The notes: a model not told the origin generated them from the sequence alone. Shown: positions 10,186 through 62,996, numbered from the stretch's first letter. The stretch is 64,000 nt of DNA from a virus (IMGVR_UViG_3300039452_000031), one strand, 5' to 3'. Numbers and translations: made by a program.

Positions 10186-10494
10186 ATGTCCCAAGACCAA
10201 CACCTCTCGTTCGCCATCGGTACGGCCGTGGAATTCACCGAGGCCTTCAAGGCCAAGGGTAAGCTTATGCCCAAGCCCAATCACGACTACCAGTGCGAAT
10301 TTCAATGGATCGTATGCGATGTATCGGTGCAAACCGGTGAGCTTAAATACGCGGTAAACGGTATGGCTTGGTTCGCTCATGCGGATCTGAAGTTCGTGGA
10401 CTACGCTACGGAAGCCAGCGTGAACTTCGCCATTGAGGAGATGGGCGAAGAAGAGGAAGAGGAAGATGAAGAGGACCTCGACTGGGAGGAGTGA
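10186..10494 (+). CDS. hypothetical protein with poly-acidic C-tail
   Basis: AGAAAGG SD motif upstream. C-terminus EEMGEEEEEEDEEDLDWEE. Confidence 0.5.
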   Translation: MSQDQHLSFAIGTAVEFTEAFKAKGKLMPKPNHDYQCEFQWIVCDVSVQTGELKYAVNGMAWFAHADLKFVDYATEASVNFAIEEMGEEEEEEDEEDLDWEE

Positions 10495-10814: not shown

Positions 10815-11048
10815 ATGAGCCGTCTACCAGAAGTCAACACCGTTATCCCGTGCCGCAACGAGCACGTAATCACCCTGAAGAACAACAAACCCGCAATCTG
10901 CGCTGAATGGAAGGCTTCTGGTTGGGTTGCGGTTGATCCTTCCGAGCGCAGGGGCCTGATTGTGCTCCTGCAGAACGTGGTCCCCAACATCGAGGGGGCC
11001 CAGGTCGTCAAAAGACACAAAAACAGCGTGGAAGCGGTCGCAGTATGA
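10815..11048 (+). CDS. hypothetical protein
   Basis: 77-aa ORF with RBS GAGGAAG. Confidence 0.4.
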   Translation: MSRLPEVNTVIPCRNEHVITLKNNKPAICAEWKASGWVAVDPSERRGLIVLLQNVVPNIEGAQVVKRHKNSVEAVAV

Positions 11049-11087
11049 GCAGCAGGGCGCTGGTTCCCTACAGTGCGATCCCACATC

Positions 11088-11115
11088 TTGCGCTTCTAAA
11101 AAACTATGCTATACT
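11088..11115 (+). promoter_or_regulatory. host-type promoter TTGCGC-16-TATACT with TGc extension
   Basis: Lies in the 110-nt gap before ATG 11159. Shares the TGCTATACT core with the 4700 and 24476 promoters. Confidence 0.4.
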
Positions 11116-11158
11116 GCTATCACGGCAGGCTGCGAGTGTGTCTAAGCGCTACACAGCA

Positions 11159-11836
11159 ATGTTTGATCGCGCAGAAGCTCTGCTTATGGCCGCCTGCGAG
11201 GCCCATGAGGATCTCATGCAGAAGCTTCACGACCTGAAGCAGGATCTTCATCTGCAAACCAAGGGGGTACCTGCAACCGAAGCCGTGGACGTGCAGGGGC
11301 GTAATAACCTTGCCGCTGTCCACCAAACTCACGAAGCAACCGCTGCCCAGAAGGAGATTATTAAGAAGGCTTTTCGAGAAGCCGTAAAATACGCTCATCC
11401 CGCCAAAGGCGGTTCTGAGGAAGAACTCGCTATGGTGATCGCGGCCTACAAAGCCTACAATTTGACAGCCTTGACCGACTACGTGTTGGCCAAGAACCGG
11501 ACGGTGCTGGAGTCCATCGCGTTCTTCAAGGACGAGGCTCAAAGGCACCCTCTGGCCTGGAAGATGTTTCAGGCGTCCTCGCAGTACCAAGTAGTAAGAA
11601 ACACGGAGATGGGTTTTAAAGATAGGGCCGAAATGTTGGCCCGACTCTACTTAGAATCCCAAATTCGAGAACTGGAACTCGAACTCCTGTCCCAATTCCA
11701 ACGATCTATTTTCCCCACCGAAAGGAGCCATCATGGCCATCCCCAAGAAGACAGTGAAGAAGGTAGCCCCTTCCCAGAAAGCACCAGTGAAGAAGGCGAC
11801 GGTCACCAAGCTGGCACCGAAGCGCACCCGCTCTGA
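11159..11836 (+). CDS. hypothetical protein with J-domain-like segment (HPA instead of HPD)
   Basis: IIKKAFREAVKYAHPAKGGSEEELAMVIAAYKAY resembles J-domain helices II-III. The 3' end overlaps the next gene by 104 nt, so the true end may differ. Confidence 0.35.
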   Translation: MFDRAEALLMAACEAHEDLMQKLHDLKQDLHLQTKGVPATEAVDVQGRNNLAAVHQTHEATAAQKEIIKKAFREAVKYAHPAKGGSEEELAMVIAAYKAYNLTALTDYVLAKNRTVLESIAFFKDEAQRHPLAWKMFQASSQYQVVRNTEMGFKDRAEMLARLYLESQIRELELELLSQFQRSIFPTERSHHGHPQEDSEEGSPFPESTSEEGDGHQAGTEAHPL

Positions 11837-12560
11837 AGACGAGGACACGCCGCCGGCTAAAGCAGGCAAGGTTATCAAGGGCGCCTTCGGCCGCCCGGCA
11901 GGCAAGCGTACGGCAACCAAGCGCAAGCCCATCCCGACCTACAAGGCCCCCGCAGACTTCAAGGCCCACTCGCTGCTGGTACAATTCCGCACCGAGAAGG
12001 ACGGTCTCATCGGCGCCGACATCAAGGCCACCCGTTACCAAGGCCGCTTCGACTTCGACGCCGACGACAAGAAGAAGTCGGACCTCGCAAGCTACGATCC
12101 CCAGACGCTGGCTGGTCTGGCTGCCCGTCTCGGCGCCGTGACCTTCAAGCCCAACGCGGAGCGCCGAATGTCGGTCTCTCCTGCTGACCGCTCAAATGCT
12201 GGCCAAACGAAGTCCAAGGTCGACGGTGAGGTCAAGATCAAGAAGCACTATGCGGTGAACACTGACGGTACCCCGATGTATGGGGCGGCCCGTCTGCCGG
12301 CCAGCGCGGTCTTCCAGGTCCACATCCGCGTCGGCAAGTCGGCCGCCAAGGGTGACATCCTGACCGCAGGGGTGCGTGGCATGTGGCAAATCGTGACCAA
12401 GAAAGACACAGGCCGCCGTATCCGCAAGGAGCTGCCGAAGACTGACGTGGCATTCAAGATGGTTCGCCGAGCTGCTCGTGTGCTGCCGGCTGCTTTTGCC
12501 CAGGTTCAGATGCCCCCGAAGCGTGGTCGCCGTGCCGCTGCTGAAGGCGCTGACGAGTAA
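11733..12560 (+). CDS. basic Lys/Ala/Pro-rich histone H1-like protein
   Basis: Strong RBS AAGGAG. N-terminus PKKTVKKVAPSQKAPVKKATVTKLAPKRTRS. Confidence 0.55.
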   Translation: MAIPKKTVKKVAPSQKAPVKKATVTKLAPKRTRSEDEDTPPAKAGKVIKGAFGRPAGKRTATKRKPIPTYKAPADFKAHSLLVQFRTEKDGLIGADIKATRYQGRFDFDADDKKKSDLASYDPQTLAGLAARLGAVTFKPNAERRMSVSPADRSNAGQTKSKVDGEVKIKKHYAVNTDGTPMYGAARLPASAVFQVHIRVGKSAAKGDILTAGVRGMWQIVTKKDTGRRIRKELPKTDVAFKMVRRAARVLPAAFAQVQMPPKRGRRAAAEGADE

Positions 12561-12605
12561 ACCCGATAACTAAGCCCACACCTTTCATCCCCAACCTTAA
12601 AGGAC

Positions 12606-12971
12606 TTGATCATGACTACACTGATTTCCATTCCCGTGGGCACGGAAGTCACCTTCACGCCGGACGCTGAATCGGAATACGACCTGCCGGGCGACGTGGA
12701 AGGTAAGTTCTACATCACCTCTGCAGTGCTCGTCGAACCTGGATACGTCGAGTACGCGGTGAACGAACAGGACGGCTTCGCGGTCGACGATCTGGACGTC
12801 GTTGCGAGTCCGACCGAAGACTCTCTGAACCTTGATTTCTCTGAACTCGTCACCAATGAAGACGGTGATGACGAGGAGGGTGAGGATGAAGGTGAGGACT
12901 CGGTCTACGGTGAGGAGGACGAGGACGGTGAGGAAGAGGCCGAGGACGAAGAAGGCTCCGAACCGCTCTGA
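12606..12971 (+). CDS. hypothetical protein with poly-acidic C-terminus
   Basis: RBS AAAGGA. C-terminus DGDDEEGEDEGEDSVYGEEDEDGEEEAEDEEGSEPL. Confidence 0.5.
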   Translation: MIMTTLISIPVGTEVTFTPDAESEYDLPGDVEGKFYITSAVLVEPGYVEYAVNEQDGFAVDDLDVVASPTEDSLNLDFSELVTNEDGDDEEGEDEGEDSVYGEEDEDGEEEAEDEEGSEPL

Positions 12972-12998
12972 ACCTCAAAAGCCCTTAAAAACCCATAC

Positions 12999-13010
12999 AA
13001 ACTGTAAACA
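12999..13010 (+). promoter_or_regulatory. conserved 12-mer AAACTGTAAACA (candidate phage-specific promoter), copy 1
   Basis: One of six near-identical copies; 74 nt upstream of ATG 13084 and followed by the hairpin GCAGG(N10)CCTGC. Confidence 0.5.
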
Positions 13011-13083
13011 CGCAGTAGCAGGATGGTGGTGACCTGCACCAATCACCCCAAAGCAAATCGATTTGCAACAAGGAAAATACATC

Positions 13084-13911
13084 ATGGCTCGTACCGCAAA
13101 GACCTCCGCACGCAACACCCGCGCTGTCAAGAAGCCTGCACGTGGCGCCGCAGCGAAGCCGGCTCGCGCTGCTCGTGGCACCCGTACTGCAACCCGTGGC
13201 GCTCGCGCTGAACGCGCACCGAAGGTGACGAAGACCACGCGCGCTACCCGTCAAGCCAAGGCCGCACCGAAGCGTGCGCCGAAGGCTACGAAGGTGAGCA
13301 AGGCCGCAACGGTGAGCGCATCGCTTGGTCTCCAGATCGTGACCTCGATCAGTGGTGAAGTCAAGCTCACGCCGCAGGCTTACATTGTCAATGGTCAAGT
13401 GATTCCTCACGCGCTGGTCGTGGCTGTCGTCGGTGAAACGATCTACTACCGCGCGACCGTCAATCTCGGCACCATCGAGTCGGCCAAGGAAGTCAAGGGC
13501 AAGCAAGTCTTTGCCACCGACGCTGGCAACGTCGTGGTGTTCGACCCCACAGCCTTGAGCATCATCGCCGGTGCAGCCGCTGCTGCTTCGGAAGACGAAG
13601 ACGGTGATGACGAGGAGTCGGAAGACGAAGAAGCCGACGATACCGACGAAGAGGCTGAGGAAGAGGAAGAAGAGGACGAAGAGGAAGAGGAAGAGGAAGA
13701 GGAAGAGGACGAAGAGGAAGAGGAAGAGGAAGAGGAAGAGGACGAAGAGGAAGAGGCTCCCCGTCGTTCGAAGAAGGCTGTGAAGAAGCCGGCCAAGAAG
13801 GTGCCCAAGAAGGCTCGCGACGAAGAAGAGGAAGAAGAGGACGAGGAAGGCGAAGATGAGGACGAAGAATTCAACTTCGACGACGAGGAAGACGAAGGCG
13901 AAGACGAATAA
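13084..13911 (+). CDS. chimeric histone H1-like (N-terminal basic) and poly-Glu/Asp (C-terminal) protein
   Basis: N-terminal ~90 aa is an Arg/Lys/Ala/Thr-rich basic region. The C-terminus has long EEEEEEEEEED runs. ATG 13084 is preferred over the TTG at 13063 given by the ORF track. Confidence 0.6.
   Translation: MARTAKTSARNTRAVKKPARGAAAKPARAARGTRTATRGARAERAPKVTKTTRATRQAKAAPKRAPKATKVSKAATVSASLGLQIVTSISGEVKLTPQAYIVNGQVIPHALVVAVVGETIYYRATVNLGTIESAKEVKGKQVFATDAGNVVVFDPTALSIIAGAAAAASEDEDGDDEESEDEEADDTDEEAEEEEEEDEEEEEEEEEEDEEEEEEEEEEDEEEEAPRRSKKAVKKPAKKVPKKARDEEEEEEDEEGEDEDEEFNFDDEEDEGEDE
13610..13905 (+). repeat. coding GAR-rich (GAG/GAA/GAC) tandem repeats, ~33-nt unit
   Basis: gaggaagaggaagaggaagaggaagaggacgaa repeated about 2.5 times, plus related stretches. 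Confidence 0.6.
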
Positions 13912-13929
13912 GTTCGTGATGGCCTGATC

Positions 13930-13961
13930 AAGGAAGGGGACTGTGTGCCCCTTCCTTTTTT
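13930..13961 (+). terminator. rho-independent terminator
   Basis: AAGGAAGGGG(N8)CCCCTTCCTT followed by TTTT, 19 nt after the stop at 13911. Confidence 0.85.
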
Positions 13962-13973
13962 GCAAGGAGCCCC

Positions 13974-14261
13974 ATGAGCAAAGACGTTCTCGCACTTTAT
14001 AGCCGGAAATGCAAAAGGTGTGGACACTTGGATCCGGAGGAGACCAAGAAGTTCACTAGCTGTCACTACAGCAGAGGGAACATTGAATGTCCCGCACAGG
14101 AGGTGCAGATTGCAGTAGTGGGTGAAGCCAAAAGGTTGGCGGCTTCACTGAAGAAGGCGAAAGCCGAAGACAACCTTAGGCTGGAGATCAGAATCCTTGA
14201 GTACGTGAGGACGAAGACCCAAGCCTTCCAACACCGTTTCAAAGAGTGGACAAAGTCATGA
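13974..14261 (+). CDS. hypothetical Cys-rich (zinc-ribbon-like) protein
   Basis: CKRCGH...CHYSRGNIECP. RBS AAGGAG. Confidence 0.45.
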   Translation: MSKDVLALYSRKCKRCGHLDPEETKKFTSCHYSRGNIECPAQEVQIAVVGEAKRLAASLKKAKAEDNLRLEIRILEYVRTKTQAFQHRFKEWTKS

Positions 14262-14992
14262 GCGAGAGAACGAAGCCCACGACACTCAAGTTGGTCAAGA
14301 ACAAGTCCTGGTACATTCCGGGCGACACCCAGACGTACAAGACGCTGAAGAGCTTGGGCGTCCCACTGGTTAAAATCCACGTGGATATGATCCCCACGCT
14401 CAAGCTCCTTTTCGAGTCCCGTGGCATAGAAGCCCGGGCACAGAATTTCAAGTACCTGCTGGACAAGATGCTCGACAAGGTCGGGAGTCAATGGCAGGCA
14501 AAGCAGGGCCGTACCTGCAGGCTGGCGGAGACCCGCCTTCTTTTCCAAGCCAAGGGTGATCGCCATCGCAAGGCCTTCAACGCCCTTGACGTATACCTTG
14601 CGAAGTTCTTTGCGCGCTGGGGCTACTCGTATTCTGCGGAGTTCTCGGAGACTCCTGGTCGCATGAAGATGGTGGTCGACTATCGCTTCGACCCTGAGCG
14701 CAACCCCATCATCCCTACGGTCGAGGCTCCGGTCAAGACTGTGACTGAGTTCGAGATGGGGTTCACCAAGCTGCGTATCACCTTCAACGACAAGCCTACT
14801 GTTGCGGGAACAACTCGCACCCGCACACTGCCGGCCAATATTCAGGTCGAGGTGTTAGAGAAGGCAGGGTCTGACTGGCGGCCTCGCTACCAGTCTACTT
14901 GTGTGGATGCCCAGCTGGGTGAAGTCACCCAGTTGATGGAGGCTGTGGCCATCATTCATCAGCGCCGCAAGGTGCAAGAGGGCCGAGCATGA
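14246..14992 (+). CDS. hypothetical protein
   Basis: 248-aa ORF. Confidence 0.5.
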   Translation: MDKVMSERTKPTTLKLVKNKSWYIPGDTQTYKTLKSLGVPLVKIHVDMIPTLKLLFESRGIEARAQNFKYLLDKMLDKVGSQWQAKQGRTCRLAETRLLFQAKGDRHRKAFNALDVYLAKFFARWGYSYSAEFSETPGRMKMVVDYRFDPERNPIIPTVEAPVKTVTEFEMGFTKLRITFNDKPTVAGTTRTRTLPANIQVEVLEKAGSDWRPRYQSTCVDAQLGEVTQLMEAVAIIHQRRKVQEGRA

Positions 14993-15425: not shown

Positions 15426-15557
15426 ATGGAGACCCTAATGCCTATCGAGGATGAGGATCAGGTTCGTGCGCGGCGACGTCAGGAGTACGTATCGCCATGG
15501 GCTTGGCGTTCCAAGAAGCATGAAGGTCTTAGATTCATCATCGGCAAGCAAGCATGA
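15426..15557 (+). CDS. small ORF (43 aa), translationally coupled to topo II
   Basis: ATG 2 nt after the upstream stop. Its TGA overlaps ATG 15554 (ATGA). Below the 60-aa cutoff of the ORF track. Confidence 0.25.
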   Translation: METLMPIEDEDQVRARRRQEYVSPWAWRSKKHEGLRFIIGKQA

Positions 15558-17458
15558 CCAAATACACATCAGACTCAATTGAGACCCTAAGATTTCCGGA
15601 TTCGATTAGACGTAATCCCAGCATGTACGTGGGTGGCACTGACGCACATGGTCTGTTCGTGATCTTGCGGGAGCCTTCAGACAACGCGGTTGACGAGCAT
15701 CTGGCTGGACGCAACGATTCGGTGTCGATCAAGGTCGACACCGATGGCTCTTATTGGGTGCAAGACTCTGGTGCTGGCATCCCTCAGGGCATCAAGAAGA
15801 TCGTCATCAACGTCAATGGCAAGGAGATCAAATCCTCCATGCCAACCCTCCAAGCCGTCGTAGGGGAACTTCACACTTCGGGTAAATTCCACTCAGAGGC
15901 CTACAAAGTCTCTATGGGAACCCACGGTATAGGTATCAAGGGGACTAATGCCCTGTCCGAGTTCTTCACCGTCCACACTTGCTACAAAGGCGAGTGGTTC
16001 GAAATCGGGTTCAAGAAAGGCAAGCTCGTTACCCCTGTAAAGTCTTCTAAGGCTCCCATAAGCCCGTTCACTGGCAAGCGGGTAGTCAAAGGCACCTTGA
16101 TTCACTTTCAACCAGATGCTTCTGTTTTCTCGGTCAAGAGTTTCCCGCCGGCGATGCTTCTTGAGTGGGCTGAAATTCAAGCCTACTTGAATCCCGGCCT
16201 CAAGGTTACCGTGGACGTTAAGGGGAAGACCAAAACCTTCTTCTCCAAGAAGGGGGCGTCAGAGCTGATTCACAAGTGGCTGGCTAAGGAGCAGGATGTA
16301 GCGGTTGAAGCCGATGCCTTCATCTTCAATAACGAGCTGGCTCATTCAACCGTCATGTTTTCTAACGTCGATGGTTTCAAAGTCAAAGGCTACGTTAACG
16401 GTCTTGGCAACTCTCAGGGTGGCAAGCACGTGGACTCTGTCGCCCGTGCCCTGTATGAAGCCATCAAGCCCTACATGACGGGCATCAAAAAGGTCGAGGG
16501 CAAGCCCAAGTACCCGTTCGGCATCGATGACTTCAAAGACGGCATGATCGGGGTTGTGAACGCCAAGCTGCACAAGGCCGCATTCTCTTCTCAAGATAAG
16601 GCGAAGCTTACCGATGATCGCATGGGTAAGGATTTCGAAGCCCTAGTCCTTCCGGAAGCCAAGAAGTTCTTCGCCGCCAACAAGGCTATGGCTAAGCGCC
16701 TGTGTGATCGGGCAACCAAGATCACGGAACTGAAAGGCAAGTTCAAGGCCTCCAAGGCCGTGGCGACGGCTCTGAATAAGATGAAGCGTTCCGGCTTGCC
16801 TCCCAAGTACGCCCCGCCGTCTAGATCCGTACCTCCTGCGCAGCGTGAGATTTTCATCGTCGAGGGCGATTCGGCTGCCGGCGGCATTCGCAAAGTTCGT
16901 CTCCCTCACCAAGGGCTTCTACCCCTTAAGGGTAAGATGATGAACGCCTGGAGGGCTAAGGGCGACAAAGCTCTGGCCTCCTTTGCGACCATGAGCTTGC
17001 TGGCGGCTATGGGCTTCGATCCCCGCCACGAGGACCCCCTGAAGAAACTGCAAGTAGGCGCAGTGATTCTCTTGGCCGACGCGGACGCCGACGGGGAACA
17101 CATCAACTGTCTGCTGAATGCCTTGTTCTCCAAGTACCTGCCTGGGATGTATGAGGCGGGAATGATCTACGTTGGGGACATGCCGGAGTTCTATGCTATC
17201 AAGGGTGACCAGCTGTTCACCGGCGACACCTTGAGTAGCATTCAAAAGAAGCTCAAGGCTGCGGGCGTGAAGGCTGAGGTTAAGCATGCCAAGGGCTGGG
17301 GCGAAGTTGACCATCAGGTGCTGAAGATTTTGGCTGTTGACGCCGAGACGCGGAAGCTGATTCGAATCAAGCCCTTGTCTAAGAAAGACTTGAGTGACTT
17401 CTCGGCCTTGATGGGTAAGTCTGACCCAGGAGAAGCCAATCAACAGGAGAAAGAATGA
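15554..17458 (+). CDS. type II DNA topoisomerase, ATPase/TOPRIM subunit (GyrB/T4 gp39-like)
   Basis: GHKL ATPase motifs SDNAVDEHLAG, DSGAGIP, HTSGKF and HGIGIKG. TOPRIM motifs EIFIVEGDSAAG, PLKGKMMNAW and LADADADGEHI. Confidence 0.85.
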   Translation: MTKYTSDSIETLRFPDSIRRNPSMYVGGTDAHGLFVILREPSDNAVDEHLAGRNDSVSIKVDTDGSYWVQDSGAGIPQGIKKIVINVNGKEIKSSMPTLQAVVGELHTSGKFHSEAYKVSMGTHGIGIKGTNALSEFFTVHTCYKGEWFEIGFKKGKLVTPVKSSKAPISPFTGKRVVKGTLIHFQPDASVFSVKSFPPAMLLEWAEIQAYLNPGLKVTVDVKGKTKTFFSKKGASELIHKWLAKEQDVAVEADAFIFNNELAHSTVMFSNVDGFKVKGYVNGLGNSQGGKHVDSVARALYEAIKPYMTGIKKVEGKPKYPFGIDDFKDGMIGVVNAKLHKAAFSSQDKAKLTDDRMGKDFEALVLPEAKKFFAANKAMAKRLCDRATKITELKGKFKASKAVATALNKMKRSGLPPKYAPPSRSVPPAQREIFIVEGDSAAGGIRKVRLPHQGLLPLKGKMMNAWRAKGDKALASFATMSLLAAMGFDPRHEDPLKKLQVGAVILLADADADGEHINCLLNALFSKYLPGMYEAGMIYVGDMPEFYAIKGDQLFTGDTLSSIQKKLKAAGVKAEVKHAKGWGEVDHQVLKILAVDAETRKLIRIKPLSKKDLSDFSALMGKSDPGEANQQEKE

Positions 17459-18948
17459 AGGTCCGTTCTAAACGGCTCGGCTCTGGTGAGCGGGGCCTGA
17501 TCACCGAAGAGTCTCTAGCAGACTTCGGGACCCGCGGCATGGGCGTCTATGCCGACGAGGTTAATCTAGCTCGGGCAGTGCCAGACATCATGGATGGGCT
17601 GAAACCTGTGCAGCGCCGCATCCTGTGGGCCGCTTCAAAGCTAGGCAAGGATATGGTGAAGACGGCTCGGGTCGTGGGTGAGACCGTGGGTAAGTACCAT
17701 CCACACTCAGATGCTTCTGTGTCGGACTCGATCACGGTCCTAGTGAACTCTAACGTACCTACCTTTCGGGGCGAAGGGAATTGGGGCTCGCTGATCGATC
17801 CGGCAGGTGCTATTCGATACACGAACTGCACTCTCTCGGCCTACGGGTGGGCTGGATTCTTTGACCCCAACTACATCAGCAAAGAAGTAACACCGTTCGT
17901 TCCCAACTACGACGACAAGACGGTAGAGCCGGTTACGCTTCCTGCGCTTCTGCCCAACGTTATTCTGAATGGCTCATCTGGTATCGGTGTTGGGACGACA
18001 ACCAATCTCCCCTCCTTTACCCCTGAGTCGGTGGTCTTGATTCTCAAGCGGTTGCTGGCAGGCGAGCGCCTAGCCCCCTTGGACTTTGCCAAGACTCTCA
18101 AGTACCAGTACAAGTACGGCGGCAGACCAGTCAAGTCCAAAGAGAACGCCCAAGGATGGATGGAGCTCTTCAAGGCCCCCTCAGCCCGAGTCGTGTTCGA
18201 GGCTTCCCTTGTTATCGACAAGGACCATAAGGCAATCGAAATCGATGACTGGCCTTATGGTTTGGACCCCGTGAAGTTCATCACCAAGGTCCGAACCTTT
18301 CCTGAAGTCGACCAGGCTTACAACAACAAGGGCGCTACTGGCTTCAGGATCGAGATGCGTAGGGACCACAACTATGCACAATTTGATAAGCTGGTAGAGA
18401 AGGTCCAGAAGGCAACGCAGGTAGCCCGATCATTCAAGATCAACGTCACGCATCGGAAATCTTCGGTCGTTGACGGTGTGGTATCGATGACGACGGAGTA
18501 CCTGAACCTGACGGTACCAAAGCTGATCGTCACCTGGCTTCGACATCGCGTCGAGCTGGAGAAGGCGAGTCTCCAGAATCGAATCCTCAACCAGCAGTCA
18601 GCTATCGACTACTCGGAGCTCTTGATCTTTGTAGCCAAGAACGCGGACGCCCTCATCAAGGTCATCCGAACTTCAACGGATCCGGAAGCGGACCTGATGA
18701 AGGTCTTCAAACTGTCCGAACTGCAGGCGAAGCAAGTCTTGGATCTCCAGTTGAGGAAAATCAGCAAGCTGGACCAGACAAAGGTGCTGGAGGCTCTGAA
18801 AGAGCAGCGAGCTGATCTTAAGCAGCTGGAGTTGTGGCTCAAGAAGCCCAAGCAGAAGGTCATGGATGACTGTGATCAGGTCCTGAAAGCAATCGAGGCG
18901 GATCGCAAGTTCGAGGCCGCCAAGGATAGGAAGATGAAGGTCAAGTAA
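17455..18948 (+). CDS. type II DNA topoisomerase, breakage-reunion subunit (GyrA/ParC/T4 gp52-like)
   Basis: YADEVNLARAVPDIMDGLKPVQRRILWAA. Candidate active-site Tyr in AIRYTNCTLS. ATGA overlap with the B subunit. Confidence 0.8.
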   Translation: MKVRSKRLGSGERGLITEESLADFGTRGMGVYADEVNLARAVPDIMDGLKPVQRRILWAASKLGKDMVKTARVVGETVGKYHPHSDASVSDSITVLVNSNVPTFRGEGNWGSLIDPAGAIRYTNCTLSAYGWAGFFDPNYISKEVTPFVPNYDDKTVEPVTLPALLPNVILNGSSGIGVGTTTNLPSFTPESVVLILKRLLAGERLAPLDFAKTLKYQYKYGGRPVKSKENAQGWMELFKAPSARVVFEASLVIDKDHKAIEIDDWPYGLDPVKFITKVRTFPEVDQAYNNKGATGFRIEMRRDHNYAQFDKLVEKVQKATQVARSFKINVTHRKSSVVDGVVSMTTEYLNLTVPKLIVTWLRHRVELEKASLQNRILNQQSAIDYSELLIFVAKNADALIKVIRTSTDPEADLMKVFKLSELQAKQVLDLQLRKISKLDQTKVLEALKEQRADLKQLELWLKKPKQKVMDDCDQVLKAIEADRKFEAAKDRKMKVK

Positions 18949-18962
18949 CAGGCTCCGCAAGG

Positions 18963-18974
18963 AAACTGTAAACA
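18963..18974 (+). promoter_or_regulatory. AAACTGTAAACA motif copy 2
   Basis: 15 nt after the GyrA-like stop, 71 nt before ATG 19045. Followed by hairpins CTGGGA(ATTC)TCCCAG and CGGGCAG(N11)CTGCCCG. Confidence 0.5.
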
Positions 18975-19044
18975 AATCTGGGAATTCTCCCAGGTCGGGC
19001 AGATAACAAAATCCTGCCCGTTCAATCAGAGAAGGAAATCTAAA

Positions 19045-19407
19045 ATGGCAACCACTCAACGCGCCGCTAGCGTCGCCAAGCAAGTCTCGGCCCTGGAGCG
19101 TAACAACAACCAACTGACCCGCCAGAACACCCGTCTGGAAGCCCTGGTCGAGAAGCTGAAGGCTCAGGCTGCCGGCGCCAAGGCCAAGCGTGCTGGTGCA
19201 GCCACCAAGGCTGAGAAGCCAGCTCGGGGTACCAAGGTCGCGAAGGCGGCCAAGGCCGAGCGCGTCGTTAAGGGCAAGAAGGTCCGTGCTGAAAAGCCGA
19301 CCAAGGCCGTTAAGGGCGAGCGTATCGCCAAGGCTGGTAAGGCAGCGAAGGCCGCCAAGCCGACCAAGACCGCGAAGAAGAGCAAGAACGACAGCGTTCT
19401 GCTCTGA
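19045..19407 (+). CDS. histone H1/Hc1-like protein (coiled-coil N-terminus, KAAK repeats)
   Basis: AKAAKAERVVKGKKVRAEKPTKAVKGERIAKAGKAAKAAKPTKTAKK. RBS GAGAAGGAAA. Confidence 0.55.
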   Translation: MATTQRAASVAKQVSALERNNNQLTRQNTRLEALVEKLKAQAAGAKAKRAGAATKAEKPARGTKVAKAAKAERVVKGKKVRAEKPTKAVKGERIAKAGKAAKAAKPTKTAKKSKNDSVLL

Positions 19408-25292: not shown

Positions 25293-25511
25293 ATGCAACG
25301 CAATCAACGCGTGACCCACAACAGCGTCCCGGACCTGAAGGGCGTGGTCACCAAAATCTCGTCCGCCACTGTTGCGGGCGTTCGTACCCAAATCTACGAC
25401 GTTAGTTGGTACAACAGCTCGGAGCCCAAGCTTGGCGAACCCCTGCGCGTTCGCTGCGAGGTCAAGTCTTCCGTTCGAGGCTACCTAGGATCGGATCTGA
25501 CCGCCCTTTGA
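25293..25511 (+). CDS. hypothetical protein
   Basis: 72-aa ORF with GAGAGACAATCATG context, like the previous gene. Confidence 0.4.
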   Translation: MQRNQRVTHNSVPDLKGVVTKISSATVAGVRTQIYDVSWYNSSEPKLGEPLRVRCEVKSSVRGYLGSDLTAL

Positions 25512-25528
25512 CTCGCAAGAGGTACAAG

Positions 25529-25975
25529 ATGAAAATCGAAGCCATGCCGCTAAAGCGCAAAGACGCCATGGATCGTCTGATGTCGCTGGGCCCGAACATC
25601 GTAGAGCACTCAATAAAGGTGACTCTCAATCCGAGTCATCAGGCAGCCAAGCACTGGTGTTTGGAAATCATTGCCTGGGTAGATCAGGCTCACGATGCTA
25701 CCTTTCTCAAGGGTGGCAAGCGAGTGGCAGCCTCCGACGCTGACGATGCCCTGTTTCATAGCTTTCGTGAAGCGAGGGTTCATTTCATAGTCTCTGAGTG
25801 TGTTCGCTTCGGCCTAGTGTCTCCTGCGTTTTCTCACGCCTCAGACATCGAGCGCCTAACCAAGACTCTAATGTCTGGGCTGCCTGCAAAATTCGACCGC
25901 ATGCTTGAGTTGGTGATGTCCAAGACGCCTACTCGCTTGAACGAAGTTCTTTCACCCGAATTCTTCGCCCTCTGA
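25529..25975 (+). CDS. hypothetical protein, paralog A
   Basis: WCLEIIAWVDQAHDATFLKGGKRVAASDADDALF aligns with WLRECAAWADDAHSYATICKGGKIRANDWDETFF in the 26616 gene. RBS AAGAGG. Confidence 0.5.
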   Translation: MKIEAMPLKRKDAMDRLMSLGPNIVEHSIKVTLNPSHQAAKHWCLEIIAWVDQAHDATFLKGGKRVAASDADDALFHSFREARVHFIVSECVRFGLVSPAFSHASDIERLTKTLMSGLPAKFDRMLELVMSKTPTRLNEVLSPEFFAL

Positions 25976-25996: not shown

Positions 25997-26605
25997 ATGC
26001 GCACCTACAATCCTACGAACATCGCCCACGCCTTCAGGGTCTCTCACGGTCAGGTAGTGGCCTGGGTCGAGAAGACGGACACCAACTTTGCCCTCTCCCT
26101 GAGGGCTCAGCTCAAGGCCTACGGCCGTCTGAGCGAACGGCAGTGCAGCGCCGTCATGGACATCGTGGAGCGTGATCGGGCTCGCCAGGCCAACCAGCAG
26201 AAGGTGTTGGACATCTCGCCCAAGGTCGAGGCCGCCCTTGTGGAAACCCTGTACGCGGCTTTTGCTACCGCCATGGAAAATGGCATCAAGCGTCCGCGCG
26301 TCACCATGGACGATATGGTGATCAAGCCTGCCCCGGTGACGGGCAACAACCCGGGCGCTTTGTACGTCACGGGCGTTGGTGGTCAGTATCTGGGCAAGGT
26401 CGTCAAGAACCACTTCGTCAAAGTTCCTTCCTGTACGGAAGAGGACGAGAAGCAGGTGCTGGCCCTTCTCTCAAATCCGCTGGAGGCCATGAAGGCCTAC
26501 GGCCAACGCACTGGTCGGTGCTGTATCTGTAGCAAGACTCTGACCAATGGGGAAAGCATTGAGGCCGGCATTGGTCCCATATGCGCTTCCAAGTTCGGCT
26601 TCTAG
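25997..26605 (+). CDS. hypothetical protein with C-terminal Cys cluster
   Basis: C-terminus GRCCICSKTL...GPICASKFGF. Confidence 0.5.
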   Translation: MRTYNPTNIAHAFRVSHGQVVAWVEKTDTNFALSLRAQLKAYGRLSERQCSAVMDIVERDRARQANQQKVLDISPKVEAALVETLYAAFATAMENGIKRPRVTMDDMVIKPAPVTGNNPGALYVTGVGGQYLGKVVKNHFVKVPSCTEEDEKQVLALLSNPLEAMKAYGQRTGRCCICSKTLTNGESIEAGIGPICASKFGF

Positions 26606-26615
26606 GGATAAGACT

Positions 26616-27137
26616 ATGAAAATCAAAGCCTTAGCTCGACTCCTCGCCTCTTGCAGGGATGCTACAGAAAATCTTCTCCTGTCTATGGCCAACGATCGGG
26701 CTTTCACTCGCAATGCGATGAGAGGCAACGCCCAACAGTTCGCGCTTCATGTAGTAAAACTGGGTCTGATCAAATTCGTACCCAGTCTTCAGCAATACCA
26801 GAACGGTTGGCTACGAGAATGCGCTGCCTGGGCTGACGATGCTCATAGCTATGCCACAATCTGTAAAGGTGGCAAAATCAGGGCCAACGATTGGGACGAA
26901 ACCTTCTTTGGGTGGTTCGCTGAGCCAGGGGTCGTCAAATTCATTTCCAGAAATCGAGACCTTCTACTACCTTCGCAGCAGAGTGCTAGTGTTCGTCAGG
27001 AACTCGCAACTGATGTATGGGGTCGTATGGAAATCCTGCAGAGGCGCCTTCAAGAATGGTTCTTGGCAAACAAGGATTTTGAACGGGACGACTTCTACTC
27101 GATCATGAAGAACGCCCTTGAACTTGGTGAGAACTGA
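26616..27137 (+). CDS. hypothetical protein, paralog B of the 25529 gene
   Basis: Shares the W..E...W.D.AH....KGGK....D..FF block. RBS TAGGGATAAG. Confidence 0.5.
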   Translation: MKIKALARLLASCRDATENLLLSMANDRAFTRNAMRGNAQQFALHVVKLGLIKFVPSLQQYQNGWLRECAAWADDAHSYATICKGGKIRANDWDETFFGWFAEPGVVKFISRNRDLLLPSQQSASVRQELATDVWGRMEILQRRLQEWFLANKDFERDDFYSIMKNALELGEN

Positions 27138-42036: not shown

Positions 42037-42126
42037 GGAACCGTGGCAGAGCGATTTATTGCAGCGGCCTTGAAAGCCGCCGATGGGGAAGCCTATCCGT
42101 GGGTTTGAATCCCACCGGTTCCGCCA
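42037..42126 (+). tRNA. tRNA-Ser (anticodon TGA)
   Basis: Perfect 7-bp acceptor GGAACCG/CGGTTCC. Anticodon loop CTTGAAA. Long variable arm. T-loop TTTGAAT. Encoded GCCA 3' end. Confidence 0.9.
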
Positions 42127-44682: not shown

Positions 44683-44694
44683 AAACTGTAAACA
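44683..44694 (+). promoter_or_regulatory. AAACTGTAAACA motif copy 3
   Basis: Followed by the 11-bp inverted repeat CTGGTGACGAC(N52)GTCGTCACCAG, then a ~490-nt non-coding stretch before ATG 45185. Confidence 0.5.
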
Positions 44695-45184
44695 AGAAGA
44701 CTGGTGACGACTTCCCTTGGACCTCTGCTCTGGACCTATCCTAGCCATGGGTCTGCAACTAAGGTCGTCACCAGCTAGGCGGGTAGGTTGATGCTAGACC
44801 CTCCGCTGAATAACTGGTGCCTGAGGACCTGAGGAAGAGGATCGCATAGAAGGGCCGCGACGCGTAAGCACCAAGGCCTGGAGCGGTCGACAAACTCTGA
44901 CACAGGACAGTCAGGACCAGAAGAGCCGATCGGAGACCATAGGGAGACCTAGGGCTCTGAAGCATCTAGACGATGGGATGGGCATGAATCTCATTCGAGA
45001 CCGGATTTTAGAACGTGCGTGTCCACGGGTATGCCTACCAACAGGCTTTGGTCTACGTGTGCCAGACGTTGATCGAGACCTTAGAAAAGCCTGCTTGGCA
45101 ACAGGATGCGAAACCCGAGGGATGGGTTATGGCCTCCCAAAGTCCCTCCCCGTCCTTCGGGCGTAACATAGGTAAGGATTCATC

Positions 45185-47929: not shown

Positions 47930-48008
47930 TGGTCGGTGAAAACTAGGACCACGGAAAGCAGACGTTGATGGGTGCAAGACCCGGGTTCGATTCCCGGCAG
48001 CTCCACCA
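47930..48008 (+). ncRNA. ssrA: tmRNA (ssrA), acceptor piece of a circularly permuted two-piece tmRNA; 5' boundary approximate
   Basis: 3' end AAGACCCGGGTTCGATTCCCGGCAGCTCCACCA parallels the E. coli tmRNA 3' end (...GGACGCGGGUUCAACUCCCGCCAGCUCCACCA). T-arm CCGGG-TTCGATT-CCCGG. Acceptor 3' strand CAGCTCC, discriminator A, encoded CCA. Confidence 0.75.
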
Positions 48009-48080
48009 CTAGGTTCTTACAAGGGCCTAGTAGTGCGTTCTGAACATTGCTCGATGAGTTCAGAGTAGGGCCCTAGTGAT

Positions 48081-48300
48081 GGGGCTGAACTGGTTTCGAT
48101 TGCGTTGCTGAGACTGAAGCTACATGCCGAGGTAGTATGGATCCTCGTTAAAAGCCTATGCAACAAAAGTAACTGCAGCCAATGACAGCAGCTTCGATCA
48201 GCGCCTCGCGGCCTGATCGACAAAGCTCTGCCGGGTTCTACCTAGCTTAGGTTAGGTGTGTACGGCGGAGGGCCCGGGCACCTGATAATGACGGTGTCTT
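48081..48300 (+). ncRNA. ssrA: tmRNA (ssrA), coding piece: acceptor 5' strand, PK1 and tag ORF AANDSSFDQRLAA; 3' boundary approximate
   Basis: GGGGCTGAACTGGTTTCGATTGCG parallels GGGGCUGAUUCUGGAUUCGACGGG. It pairs with CAGCTCC, giving a G3:U70 pair. PK1 reads CATGCCGAGG...CCTCGTTAAAAGCC, as in E. coli CAUGCCGAGG...CCUCGUAAAAAGCC. Resume codon GCA at 48175 and TGA at 48214-16. Confidence 0.8.
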
Positions 48301-52983: not shown

Positions 52984-53274
52984 ATGGAAAACGTTCAGAA
53001 GCCTGTGCATCGTACCAACCTGCGTGGCCTGCTGGCCTCCCTGGGCGGTAAGGTCTTCAGTCTTGACTTTATCAAGGCTGATGGTTCGCCTCGTACTATG
53101 ACTGGTCGTCTGGGAGTGGGCAAGCACTCCAAGGGCGGCCCGAACAAGGTCGAGGCCACGGATCGTCCGTACCTGACGGTATACGATTTCCAGCACAAGG
53201 GGTATCGAACTGTGAACCTTGCAACTGTGGGGCGCGTTAGGGCTCACAACCTTGATGCGTCTGTGATCGGTTGA
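52984..53274 (+). CDS. hypothetical protein
   Basis: RBS AAGGAG. Confidence 0.5.
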   Translation: MENVQKPVHRTNLRGLLASLGGKVFSLDFIKADGSPRTMTGRLGVGKHSKGGPNKVEATDRPYLTVYDFQHKGYRTVNLATVGRVRAHNLDASVIG

Positions 53275-60116: not shown

Positions 60117-60482
60117 ATGGAACTCACCACCGAACAACTGGCTACCCAGAGCCTAGGGCAACTTAAAGAACCTCTGGAGCACTGTGCCGCCCATCACCAG
60201 CAGGTTATCTCCAAGGCTTTCGATGCCTTGCGGAAGAAGTACGAGGCGGGGCTACAACCTTTCAAGGCGTATGAATATGTGCGCCTTGGCTCAGGCGGTA
60301 TTTGGGCGGCTGATAATCGAATTACTTGGTCCCAGTTCAATATCGGATCCAAGGCTGTCCTCACCCTAAACGCAAATGGGGAGATTGAGACCTTTGATCT
60401 TCCGTTCCTGATCTGGGTCTGGCTCCGTAAGACCTGGCCGTTCCGATTCGCCAAAGCCTTCTGGTATGGATGGGCGGCATGA
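60117..60482 (+). CDS. hypothetical protein
   Basis: ATG 11 nt after the upstream stop. The ORF-track start 59958 lies inside the upstream gene. Confidence 0.45.
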   Translation: MELTTEQLATQSLGQLKEPLEHCAAHHQQVISKAFDALRKKYEAGLQPFKAYEYVRLGSGGIWAADNRITWSQFNIGSKAVLTLNANGEIETFDLPFLIWVWLRKTWPFRFAKAFWYGWAA

Positions 60483-61429
60483 GTGCTTCAGCCTACCAGC
60501 ATTCAGAGGTTTTCGCCCAACTGAAGAATGTCAAGGAAGTCATTCAAGGTAACCTCACAACTCACCAGTACCTTGCAACCTTGGATTACTTCCTGGACAA
60601 CGCGGTCGCGCCAATCTTGACGGCTTATCCTGGTCTGGTCGACAACTACATGGCAAAGATTGTGGCTTGGCAGTCGCATCGACCACAAGTCAAGTTCTCG
60701 CGTGAGGACAAGGCTCATTTATCAGTTCACCTATTCAACGCCTTGACCACGTCAGGTAAGGTGAAGCGCGAGCACTTCCGAGTCATGATGTTTAATCGCG
60801 GCATCCTGTTTGGGCTCCTATCTGTTTTTCAACGGCAGGTCGCTGAGTACAAGAAACTTCATGACCCTTTGCTGAAGATCAAGAACCGCAGGCGCCGTCT
60901 TCTCCTCCGCAAGGCAGAACTTCGCACAGGTTCGGCCTACCTATACGCTGCGATATCGGAGAGCGAATACTGGGCATCCAAAGCCTACCGCTTCAAGGAA
61001 CTTATCATCCAGAAGTACACGCGGACTACTCTCATGAATGCCAAGTCGGCCTATGAAGAAGTTGGTTACGCGGTACCCCTGAACGATGTGATCCAAATCT
61101 ACTTGACCTTTCTGGTCAAGGCGATTGACAGGTGTCACTCACAGAAGGGAGTGCTCACCACCTTCGTCCAGAACTGGTTCTATTCTGCTAAGGCGGCTGT
61201 TATGAAAGCTGCCGTGGAGGAAAGAACTGTAAATGGAGGAGACGAACTGCTAGAGACCGTTGAGCACGCTATCGGACCCTCAACTGAGTATGAGGCCGTG
61301 CAGTATCTGTGCGCTACTGCAAAGCGTTTGGACCCCGAAGGTACCCTTCGGTTCGGTCTCGGCATCCCTGAGCACTTCTCGTCCTCCGATCTTAGAAAGA
61401 TCGCAATGTTCATAACCCCGGAGAAATAA
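60470..61429 (+). CDS. sigma-70 region-2-like protein (candidate phage sigma factor)
   Basis: KELIIQKYTRTTLMNAKSAYEEVGYAVPLNDVIQIYLTFLVKAIDRCHSQKGVLTTFVQNWFYSAKAAVMKA aligns in pattern with sigma region 2.1-2.3 (ELI..NLRLVv.IAKrY...g....DLIQEGN.GLmkAV.KFd..rG.kFSTYA.WWIRQAI). The start may be ATG 60479 (ATGA overlap). Confidence 0.4.
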   Translation: MGGMSASAYQHSEVFAQLKNVKEVIQGNLTTHQYLATLDYFLDNAVAPILTAYPGLVDNYMAKIVAWQSHRPQVKFSREDKAHLSVHLFNALTTSGKVKREHFRVMMFNRGILFGLLSVFQRQVAEYKKLHDPLLKIKNRRRRLLLRKAELRTGSAYLYAAISESEYWASKAYRFKELIIQKYTRTTLMNAKSAYEEVGYAVPLNDVIQIYLTFLVKAIDRCHSQKGVLTTFVQNWFYSAKAAVMKAAVEERTVNGGDELLETVEHAIGPSTEYEAVQYLCATAKRLDPEGTLRFGLGIPEHFSSSDLRKIAMFITPEK

Positions 61430-61430
61430 G

Positions 61431-62996
61431 ATGGATGATTTGGATAGCGTGCGTGCAGGCGGACGCAAAGAACGGGAGCCGGACATCGGGTCCCTCACCG
61501 ACGTATACAAGTTCCCTGAAGGTAAGTGGGTAACTCTCCGACTTCTCCCTGGCGTGGTCTCCAACGCCGGCTATTGGGTCTCGACCAAGAAGAAGGACGG
61601 CGGTAAAACCAAGTTCAGGACGAACTGCCCTTCCTACGATCCTGCCACTCAGGAACGTGACAGTACCAAGTACGACCCGTGGCGAGACCTTCAGGCCAAG
61701 GAATCCCAAGCCGTCAAGGACGGGGACTTGGATGTGAAGGCGACTCATGTTCAGTATGAGCAGAAGTATTTCATGAACGCCATCATCCGGGCTTTGGTCA
61801 AGGACGAGCCGGCGCGCAAACCCAAGCACACGGCCAATGAGCGTAAGGCCGGTTTCAAGGAAAAGGACAGCGACAGCTGGACGCCAATCAAGGTCGTTCG
61901 CCTTGGCCGAAGCCTGGTCAACAAGATCAAGGACTTGAAGGGCCTCAACATCGTTGAGGGTTCCAAGGGTGCCAAAGCCTTCCCGGTGACGGACGCAAAG
62001 TATGGCCGAGACATTCGAGTCATGTTTGACAGCTCGAAGGCTCCGGCAGAGCAGTATCAGGTGCAGCTGGGAGACAAGCGCTCCCCGCTGACTGAAGAGG
62101 AACTCGAATATCTCAAGTGGGATATCGAGACCGCAAACACCCAAAAGGAAATGTCGGAGGACGAGGTTCGTGCCGACTTTACCAGCTGGGCAACCCGCAA
62201 CAACGTGAAGGTGGCTATGAACAAGAAGGGCAAGGGTCGTACCGAAGAGGACGAGGACGAGGACTTCGACGACGAAGACGAAGACGAGGCTCCCAAGAAG
62301 AAAAAGGCACCGGCCAAGAAGACGGCAGTGAAGTCGAAGAAGTTCAAGGATGAGGACGAGGACGACGAAAATTTCGATGACGAGGACGAAGAGGACGAAG
62401 AGGAAGCTCCTAAGAAGTCCAAGAAGCCTGCGCCTAAGAAGGCCGCCCCCAAGTCCAAGAAGTCGCGTGATGAGGACGAGGAGGATGAAGAAGACGAGGA
62501 TGAGGATTTCGATGACGAGGATGAAGAAGACGAGGATAAGGCTCCCCGTAAGAAGTCCAAGAAGCCTGTAAAGAAGGCTCCGGCCAAGAAGCGTCGTCCG
62601 TCCGATGATGAAGAGGAAGACGACGAGGACGAAGAAGAGGACGATGAGCCTCCGAAGAAGTCCAAGAAGACGCCGGTGAAGAAGGTTACCTCCAAGTCGA
62701 AGTCCGATGACGAAGATGAGGAAGACGACTTCGACGATGAGGATGAAGAAGACGAGGACGAGGCTCCCCGTAAGAAGTCGGCCTCTAAATCCAAGAAGGC
62801 GCCGGCGAAGAAGTCCAAGTCGGATGACGACGATGAAGATGACTTCGACGACGAGGACGAAGAGGAAGACGAAGAGGACGATGAGCCTCCGAAGAAGTCG
62901 ACCAAGAAGCCTGTCAAGAAGGCCCCGGCCAAGAAGAGTAGCAAGCGCTCTAAGGACGAGGACGACGAGGACGACTTCGATGATGAAGACGACTGA
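61431..62996 (+). CDS. repeat protein: globular N-domain plus about 9 tandem acidic(D/E)-basic(KKSKKPxKKAPAKK) units
   Basis: Units such as EDEDEDFDDEDEEDEEEAPKKSKKPAPKKAAPKSKKS recur from about residue 270 to the end. Confidence 0.6.
   Translation: MDDLDSVRAGGRKEREPDIGSLTDVYKFPEGKWVTLRLLPGVVSNAGYWVSTKKKDGGKTKFRTNCPSYDPATQERDSTKYDPWRDLQAKESQAVKDGDLDVKATHVQYEQKYFMNAIIRALVKDEPARKPKHTANERKAGFKEKDSDSWTPIKVVRLGRSLVNKIKDLKGLNIVEGSKGAKAFPVTDAKYGRDIRVMFDSSKAPAEQYQVQLGDKRSPLTEEELEYLKWDIETANTQKEMSEDEVRADFTSWATRNNVKVAMNKKGKGRTEEDEDEDFDDEDEDEAPKKKKAPAKKTAVKSKKFKDEDEDDENFDDEDEEDEEEAPKKSKKPAPKKAAPKSKKSRDEDEEDEEDEDEDFDDEDEEDEDKAPRKKSKKPVKKAPAKKRRPSDDEEEDDEDEEEDDEPPKKSKKTPVKKVTSKSKSDDEDEEDDFDDEDEEDEDEAPRKKSASKSKKAPAKKSKSDDDDEDDFDDEDEEEDEEDDEPPKKSTKKPVKKAPAKKSSKRSKDEDDEDDFDDEDD
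62200..62990 (+). repeat. coding tandem repeats (~120-nt units of GAR-rich acidic block plus AAG-rich basic block)
   Basis: Repeated gaggacga/gaagaggaag blocks alternate with aagaagtccaagaagcc blocks. Confidence 0.55.

Follow-up and report, generated by a model that had tools for sequence, protein, structure and literature searches.

The question raised by this locus is what three neighbouring genes for proteins of extreme charge are doing in the genome of a large phage. The genes lie at positions 11733-13911 of a stretch of 64,000 nucleotides (hereafter the window) of the viral sequence IMGVR_UViG_3300039452_000031, and a first-pass annotation of that DNA had read them as a chromatin-like functional set of histone H1-like basic proteins and poly-acidic proteins. 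The phage origin of the DNA is borne out, and open reading frames (ORFs) and ribosome-binding sites (RBSs) indicate that the three charge-biased + strand genes are real, with the composition described; only about 12 of the 112 candidate + strand ORFs of the window reach comparable charge extremes over 30 amino acids (aa). The region, however, belongs to the DNA-metabolism part of a phiRSL1-like jumbo phage and is not a histone-like gene set. Within it, gene 13084 encodes a tripartite protein, composed of a basic N-arm, a core and an acidic tail. We tentatively regard this protein, with somewhat less than even confidence, as a replication-class DNA-associated accessory protein whose tail would shield a DNA-binding surface and dock replication partners.

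The gene, its parts and its flanking signals are as follows (nt, nucleotides).

13084..13911, + strand, tripartite gene 13084, 275 aa; the RBS AAGGA supports the ATG at 13084, the automatic ORF start being a TTG further upstream at 13063
13084..13314, + strand, basic N-arm of 13084, residues 1-77, charges +24/-1
13315..13590, + strand, all-beta core of 13084, about residues 78-169, conserved and roughly neutral
13591..13911 (including the stop codon), + strand, acidic tail of 13084, about residues 169-275, with 75 D/E (split based on a hidden Markov model)
12999..13010, + strand, predicted promoter element AAACTGTAAACA, 74 nt upstream of the ATG at 13084
13929..13960 (approximate), + strand, intrinsic terminator with a 10-bp G+C stem, an 8-nt loop and U6, dG about -18 kcal/mol

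The N-arm is rich in Arg, Ala and Thr (A.30, R.17, T.16, K.14) and not Lys-rich like H1. Within the tail are a single basic island, APRRSKKAVKKPAKKVPKKAR (nt 13756-13818), and, closer to the C-terminus, the acidic-aromatic motif EEFNFDD (nt 13864-13884). The strong terminator noticed earlier behind the gene is confirmed by its G+C stem and U6, and 13084 is a stand-alone transcription unit. When the 11733, 12612 and 13084 proteins were searched against Pfam, PHROGs and NCBIfam, nothing usable was found; a match of the ORF starting at 13063 to the 'ATPase' family phrog_20988 (E 5e-5) was dismissed, since it covers low-complexity sequence only. An antisense ORF of 336 aa (12985-13995, - strand) spans all of 13084 and reads as poly-F/L/S; it was rejected as a gene, being a by-product of the GAA/GAG repeats.

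The topoisomerase encoded in the window shows, in its large subunit, 44-52% identity to those of Ralstonia phage phiRSL1 and Burkholderia phages BcepSaruman, BcepSauron and BCSR5. Megablast for near-identical phage genomes found none, no phage record being close at the DNA level, and a single-protein scan of IMG/VR found no close relatives. Based on this identity and the lack of a DNA-level relative, we assign the window phage by sequence comparison to the phiRSL1-like jumbo phages, of which it is an uncultured, distant member; Achromobacter phage Motura is also a relative. An indexed homolog search with the 13084 core gave 0 matches with a single sequence and 1 with an 8-sequence profile, and an exhaustive search was used instead, in which phmmer over 1.84 billion representative proteins yielded 24 tripartite-sized clusters at 50% identity. 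In the comparison set used for conservation counts, which comprised about 25 related loci, the tripartite core is present in 24/24 loci bearing a homolog of 11733, all five cultured relatives included. Saruman gp174, Motura gp335 and BCSR5 QRE00115 are laid out alike, as are all of the metagenomic relatives.

A census of 40 full-length members revealed which parts of the protein are kept. The core is 92-100 aa long and close to neutral, the N-arm varies and may be lacking altogether (0-120 aa, 0-35 positive charges), and the C-tail spans 39-156 aa with 19-94 acidic residues (D/E), so that net charge is negative throughout (-81 to -3, mean -44). A hydrophobic residue (F/W/Y/L/I/M) lies within the last 6 positions of the acidic tail in 39 of the 40 members, in 36 of them an aromatic one, and the C-terminal tips include DDFEF, SFDF, EELF and DDWQF. 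The charge of the N-arm is anticorrelated with the positive charge in the tail islands (rho -0.39, p 0.013), and members without an arm carry five 'EPAPKKRGKK' islands in the tail. Core, polyacidic tail and aromatic tip are thus the invariant parts of the family, while basic charge is needed but flexible in position. The earlier description of 13084 as a chimera holds for its basic N-terminus and acidic C-terminus; it does not hold for a fusion, the architecture being a conserved one.

In the phiRSL1 record NC_010811.2 (~219.70-220.55 kb; L001 7487-8342), the tripartite gene is split by frameshifts into ORF328 and ORF329. The two frames join exactly where the homologs run uninterrupted, and the likely true start, MAIPRNKGK in the third frame, resembles that of the homologs; the split is probably a sequencing or annotation error. 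As an outcome of this work, two conserved hypothetical families, 11733 and tripartite, are named and the mis-split phiRSL1 reference gene is corrected. Both families are annotated as hypothetical and have no Pfam, NCBIfam or functional PHROG assignment and no literature.

Two leads on the core were rejected. Long Ig-repeat surface proteins matched by the core (P0130, P0134, P0141 and P0144) were judged not to be homologs; they contain Cadherin, Big_9 and fn3 domains, and the matches were put down to beta-strand and composition similarity. A motif, GxVIPRxxVxAVxG, resembled the SpoVT/AbrB swapped hairpin, but 8 cores gave no match to PF04014 at E <= 10, and hhalign of the tripartite core against an approximate AbrB sequence gave a probability of 1.4%.

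The tripartite gene lies in a conserved module. In the relatives, blastp and phmmer gave the order J-domain-like gene, 11733 family, tripartite family, Cys-rich gene (~100 aa), ~250-aa gene, sometimes an HNH gene, and topoisomerase II, with the first five present in 21, 24, 24, 23 and 23 loci, respectively. A neighbourhood of ligase, RtcB and topoisomerase II is the constant setting of the tripartite gene. The members in the window other than 13084, and the acidic gene interposed among them with its paralog, are as follows.

10186..10494, + strand, small protein with an acidic tail, paralogous to 12612 (33% identity over 89 aa, E 1e-5)
11045..11836, + strand, J-domain-like co-chaperone gene, weak Pfam DnaJ match (E 0.027)
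11733..12560, + strand, clade-specific basic protein 11733, 275 aa, RBS AAAGGAG before the ATG
12612..12971, + strand, small acidic protein 12612, 119 aa; the RBS favours the ATG at 12612 over the TTG at 12606
13974..14261, + strand, Cys-rich (CxxC...CH...C) small protein, directly 3' of the tripartite gene in each locus whose downstream gene was inspected; family searches gave no match
14246..14992, + strand, conserved 250-aa protein between the Cys-rich gene and topoisomerase II; family and PDB searches gave no match
15554..18948, + strand, type IIA topoisomerase, large and small subunits, anchor of the module (tblastn 52% identity to the phiRSL1 gyrB-like protein; Pfam DNA_topoisoIV E 5e-72)

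Protein 11733 is strongly basic (22% K+R, net +34). Its N-arm (residues 1-65) is disordered and K/A/P-rich (K.21, A.14, P.13); a globular alpha/beta domain of ~195 aa begins at nt 11928, and a PPKRGRR motif and a short acidic C-terminus come after it. We found 117 unannotated metagenomic homologs (E <= 3e-28), several of them on contigs of 100-230 kb. Their alignment revealed a variable K/A/P-rich N-arm and a conserved ~195-aa domain in which 19 columns are invariant, with Arg or Lys in many of these, followed by a PPKRTRG-type motif and a short acidic end. A ligase-like reading of the domain was rejected because the lysine is not conserved. In our view, 11733 is a conserved basic protein in its own right, whose alpha/beta domain is novel, and it probably binds nucleic acid. 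Its start is overlapped by 104 nt by gene 11045, and a similar overlap is present in Saruman (65 nt) and other relatives. J-domains use an HPD motif to stimulate Hsp70. The DnaJ score of gene 11045 is 15 bits, below the Pfam threshold of 27.8, its homologs show HPD(R/K)GG with the typical surrounding pattern, and a JGI homolog carries a weak PF00226 flag. In the window copy, HPA replaces the canonical HPD at about nt 11396.

Genes 11733 and 13084 are separate transcription units. Their homologs are adjacent or nearly so in most genomes and separated by 7 kb in BCSR5. Gene 12612, for which the acidic D/E C-tail noted earlier is correct although the start at 12606 is not, encodes a protein with 35% D+E and a net charge of -41, in which an N-domain of ~75 aa precedes the acidic tail. 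No homolog of it was found in the phage database or in the related loci; its paralog 10186 has one distant homolog, in locus L008. The slot of 12612 is filled by a 199-aa gene in L004, by a 213-aa gene and a lipoprotein gene in L008, and by ~7 kb of other genes in BCSR5. Kinship of the 12612 N-domain with the tripartite core was tried and rejected. Judging from these comparisons, 12612 and 10186 are a small lineage-specific accessory family (N-domain plus acidic tail) outside the conserved module. In the same way, 11733 and 13084 are classed as members of a clade-wide module, and 11733, 12612 and 13084 are not one unit. The proposed functional set of three genes thus falls on the variable slot of 12612, which has no counterpart in the related loci, and on the distance between the 11733 and 13084 homologs in BCSR5. 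Conservation in related phages was borne out for 11733 and 13084 and not for 12612.

The promoter-like element in front of 13084 is of a type that also precedes replication genes. In the window, AAACTGTAAACA occurs in 5 exact copies and 1 copy with one mismatch, all on the + strand, against 0.13 expected, and the core CTGTAAA[CT]A occurs 8 times on the + strand and 0 times on the - strand. One copy is located 16 nt before a tRNA-Ser gene, which suggests that the element is a -10-type promoter. A common promoter-like element had been proposed to drive several of the charged genes; it is upstream of 13084, 19045 and 54906, but not of 11733, 12612 or 61431. In all genomes examined, a GTAAA(T/C)A element is present 55-110 nt upstream of the tripartite gene. 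The same element precedes the gene for the single-stranded DNA-binding protein (SSB) in phiRSL1 (74 nt), Saruman (55 nt), Motura (63 nt), Xanthomonas phage PhiXhv-15 (TTGTAAACA) and Erwinia phage pEa_SNUABM_1, where it is identical to the window 12-mer AAACTGTAAACA. It is also found before the RecA-like gene of Saruman and the beta-clamp gene of phiRSL1, but not before the major head, sheath and tube genes of phiRSL1. In those relatives in which it was looked for, a hairpin with a T-run lies 3' of the tripartite gene, and in the relatives examined the gene is an autonomous unit with its own promoter and terminator. Because enrichment of the 7-mer in phiRSL1 is weak, assignment to a promoter class rests on position and cross-genome recurrence; on this basis the tripartite protein is placed, provisionally, in the replication/recombination expression class, and its strong expression is presumed. 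The element defined here is a conserved phage promoter element and could aid annotation of the phiRSL1-like group.

Other copies of the element were observed in the window. The second one precedes a further charged gene.

18963..19407, + strand, second promoter copy (18963-18974), then gene 19045 (19045-19407), whose protein of 120 aa begins with a coiled coil and has a K/A-rich tail

The tail of 19045 has K.27 and A.27, and the protein matches phrog_38087, of unknown function (E 4e-10); conservation barely extends to it, L015 and L024 being the only loci with a homolog at that position. At an exact copy at 44683-44978 (+ strand), no ORF of at least 50 aa starts within 250 nt downstream and no Rfam match was found; this copy may serve a small RNA or a very short gene. 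Downstream of another exact copy, at 52828, an ORF of 96 aa (MENVQKPVHRTNLRG...) lies at 52984-53271 (+ strand) and is overlapped by a minus-strand ORF. A near-copy, GAACTGTAAATG, is located at 61224-61235 inside the sigma-factor gene, ~200 nt before the SSB start.

The tail of the tripartite protein has its closest parallel in the SSB of the phage itself, encoded at the far end of the window.

61431..62996, + strand, phage SSB 61431, N-domain residues 1-268, tail of ~250 aa from nt 62235
60470-61429, + strand, gene for a phage sigma factor (phrog_17569 E 5e-48), immediately 5' of the SSB gene

The acidic-basic repeats earlier ascribed to 61431 are present, and the protein is the SSB of the phage. 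Its first ~270 residues match phrog_15004 (E 2e-62) and show 40-50% identity to the annotated SSBs of phiRSL1, Saruman and Motura. The SSB gene has the sigma-factor gene on one side and, in relatives, a RecA-like gene on the other; an own sigma70-like factor is encoded by the phiRSL1-like phage group (PMC7412058). In the tail of 61431, F-containing acidic blocks (DEDEDFDDEDE) alternate with basic islands (APKKSKKPAPKK), the same pattern as in the tripartite tails. Acidic blocks alternating with PKK-type basic islands are common to the SSB tails of the window, phiRSL1, Saruman, Motura, BCSR5, Xanthomonas PhiXhv-15 and Erwinia pEa_SNUABM_1, and several of these seven phages have F or L within the acidic blocks. 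When tblastn was run for the tripartite core in the Xanthomonas and Erwinia phages, none was found. Based on its presence in phages that lack the tripartite core, the tail pattern appears to be ancestral to the SSB.

Sequence is also held in common by the two tails. The tripartite and SSB genes of BcepSaruman share 94 nt at 93.6% identity, encoding an identical 23-aa peptide, EDDEPAPKKGKKAPAKGKKVVEE, and the two phiRSL1 proteins have an identical 17-aa stretch in common. In a five-genome matrix of tails, sharing within a genome was convincing for the Saruman and phiRSL1 lineages only. In one lineage, the tripartite and SSB tails have evidently exchanged sequence. The tail of the Motura SSB (gp037, L014 1480-2994) terminates in DDDIPF, which is also the C-terminal tip of E. 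coli SSB, and the Motura SSB may be able to engage host SSB-interacting proteins.

Comparison with known systems indicates what kind of protein this is. T4 gp32 is built of a basic N-domain, a core and an acidic C-domain, and the acidic tails of gp32, T7 gp2.5 and bacterial SSB inhibit DNA binding by their own protein and recruit partners; those of gp2.5 and bacterial SSB have aromatic tips. The tripartite protein has a basic N-region, folded core and acidic C-region in the same order as gp32, and its acidic tail also carries a hydrophobic or aromatic tip, for which a partner-binding role may be proposed by analogy. Its promoter is of the type of the replication genes, and the phage has a gp32-like SSB of its own with the same tail pattern. 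The tripartite core, however, resembles OB-fold SSBs in neither sequence nor fold. Its tail reaches 156 aa and carries up to 94 D/E, several times the length of theirs, and basic islands often break it up. The basic arm is dispensable and can be as long as 120 aa, and the phage already has a bona fide SSB. Another comparison is p6 of phage phi29, a highly abundant protein. Like the tripartite protein, p6, which is a genome-organising, histone-like dsDNA-binding protein, combines a small phage-specific core of its own fold type with an acidic tail and is tied to replication (PMC10899789). The p6 tail is disordered and shields the DNA-binding surface, acting as an electrostatic shield that lowers DNA affinity (Kd 2.46 uM, and 1.47 uM without the tail) (PMC10899789). 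The p6 tail, however, comprises ~20-24 residues of which 10 are acidic, the p6 core is alpha+beta whereas the tripartite core is all-beta, and no sequence relation between the two was found, a PDB sequence search with the tripartite core profile being empty.

Proteins of the kind proposed, nucleic-acid-associated phage proteins with a regulatory acidic tail, are already known. What is new is a core without detectable homolog, the extreme tail length, the basic islands of the tail and the flexible placement of basic charge, as well as a tail style, a promoter type and, in one lineage, sequence common to the tripartite protein and the SSB. The acidic-tail device of SSBs has here been expanded clade-wide to 100-250 residues, with basic islands added, and is carried by a second, unrelated and universally conserved protein. 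Should the tail prove to be a portable module, the family would be a natural model for how disordered polyelectrolyte tails modulate DNA binding and which partners they recruit, and a test bed for replication-factory organisation in giant phages not known to build a nucleus.

Based on these comparisons, we suggest the following course of events. The phage-specific promoter would provide the tripartite protein in large amounts, alongside the phage SSB, recombinase and clamp. The core, aided by the basic arm or the basic islands, would bind DNA, and the acidic tail, folding back on the protein, would restrict non-specific binding in the manner of an electrostatic shield or DNA mimic. Through its acidic-aromatic tip, the tail would dock on the replication and recombination partners contacted by the SSB tail. 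We infer the DNA binding, the shielding, the partner docking and the high abundance by analogy with the systems above, and the DNA-associated role proposed earlier is plausible in this form.

Several observations weigh against this explanation. The tripartite core has no detectable relation to OB folds or any DNA-binding fold in sequence and fold searches, and its structural model, built from a 2-sequence alignment, is of low confidence (pLDDT 62). In the window protein, the aromatic motif lies 9-15 residues before the C-terminus and not at the very end. The sharing of SSB tail sequence is unambiguous in Saruman/Sauron only, and in the window the similarity of the tripartite and SSB tails is inseparable from shared codon usage and composition. 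The 7-mer core of the promoter element is short, with 11 sites against ~5 expected in the first 100 kb of phiRSL1. Literature searches found no papers or experimental data on these ORFs or any family member.

Here, we need to consider other explanations of the charge pattern. In a chromatin-like system, the basic 11733, 19045 and N-arm of 13084 would condense phage or host DNA, and the acidic proteins and tails would chaperone or titrate them in the manner of histones and nucleoplasmin. Such a system would fit the position of 11733 beside or nearly beside the tripartite gene in most genomes, the complementary charges of the two proteins, the J-domain-like co-chaperone gene that overlaps 11733, and the K/A-rich tail of 19045 behind the same promoter as 13084. 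A likeness to H1/Hc1 does exist in the K/A/P-rich composition of the 11733 N-arm and the 19045 C-tail, and HMGB1 also combines basic DNA-binding parts with an autoinhibitory acidic tail. The likeness is one of composition, however: no homology to H1, Hc1, HMGB1, HU or H-NS was detected, and searches of Pfam, PHROGs, NCBIfam and PDB sequences, as well as fold searches, returned no histone or nucleoid-protein match. The arm of 13084 is Arg/Ala/Thr-rich and the whole protein strongly acidic. The homologs of 11733 and 13084 are 7 kb apart in BCSR5, the two genes are transcribed separately, and 12612 is not conserved and 19045 barely. A net negative charge in all members and a basic arm that can be done without argue against the tripartite protein acting chiefly as a histone-like condenser of DNA, and we consider this explanation unlikely. 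An internal or scaffolding protein of the virion, packaged with or organising the DNA of a very large capsid like the T4 internal proteins and scaffold core, would be expected to be abundant, which the strong stand-alone promoter and terminator would suit. Highly charged internal proteins are known in large phages, and the A1 profile gave a very weak match to a capsid scaffolding protein. That match (E 0.25) is noise, though, the promoter element is absent before the phiRSL1 head, sheath and tube genes, and the genes are placed in the replication/topology module, a long way from the block of structural genes at 64-87 kb in phiRSL1, which makes a virion role very unlikely.

Ocr-type DNA mimics are known in phages, and the extreme acidic tails could act as decoys of this type, sequestering host nucleoid proteins, restriction or defence nucleases, or RNA polymerase. 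As in T7 Ocr, ArdA and Neisseria DMP12/19, a high density of negative charge could fill DNA-binding sites. Those mimics are compact folds whose surface carboxylates imitate the phosphate backbone, whereas the charge of the tripartite family is in tails that are probably disordered, because they are low-complexity and variable in sequence. Such tails match the tail of the phage's own SSB and are not a rigid DNA-shaped fold, and they belong to a conserved core gene, universal and syntenic rather than a variable accessory, whose promoter type is that of the replication genes. For the tripartite family, the decoy explanation is quite unlikely; it is more plausible for 12612 and 10186, which are small, acidic and lineage-specific and occupy variable slots, as is typical of anti-host accessory genes. 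It is also conceivable, but with a similarly low probability, that the tripartite protein and the SSB are block polyampholytes that phase-separate electrostatically into a membrane-less replication compartment. The multivalent block-charge pattern (up to 5-6 islands) in two co-regulated proteins, the placement of basic charge in arm or islands, and the exchange of tail modules between the two genes are consistent with such a scaffold. The argument is purely inferential, ordinary SSB-type regulation suffices to explain long acidic tails, and the net charge is strongly negative, so that a condensate would need a cationic partner or a DNA-bound state. Chimalliviruses build a phage nucleus; phiRSL1-like jumbo phages are not known to do so. 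In a stronger form of this idea, just as improbable, the interchangeable acidic/basic tails of a matched tripartite/SSB pair would co-condense as a protein-only alternative to the phage nucleus, with 11733 as a possible cationic client. Among these explanations, we prefer that of a replication-class accessory protein with a shielding and docking tail.

The window as a whole has the following content. Coding is on the + strand almost throughout, G+C is ~54%, and an NAD-dependent DNA ligase, RtcB, the two-subunit type IIA topoisomerase, the sigma factor, the SSB, six tRNAs and a permuted tmRNA are encoded. In the relatives L006 (8821-11913) and L004 (10215 onward), the gene for the large subunit of topoisomerase II contains intein- or HNH-type insertions (Pfam Intein_splicing, PT-HINT and HNH_3), and the window gene is without them. 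The permuted tmRNA gene is located at 47952-48216 (+ strand; Rfam RF04321, 75.5 bits), with AANDSSFDQRLAA as the tag peptide given by ARAGORN, and the six tRNA genes lie around it at 42037, 43024, 50509, 50590, 50682 and 53797. Finally, the ORFs at 25406-25975 and 26547-27137 (+ strand) are a paralog pair with 40% identity over 68 aa (E 4e-6).

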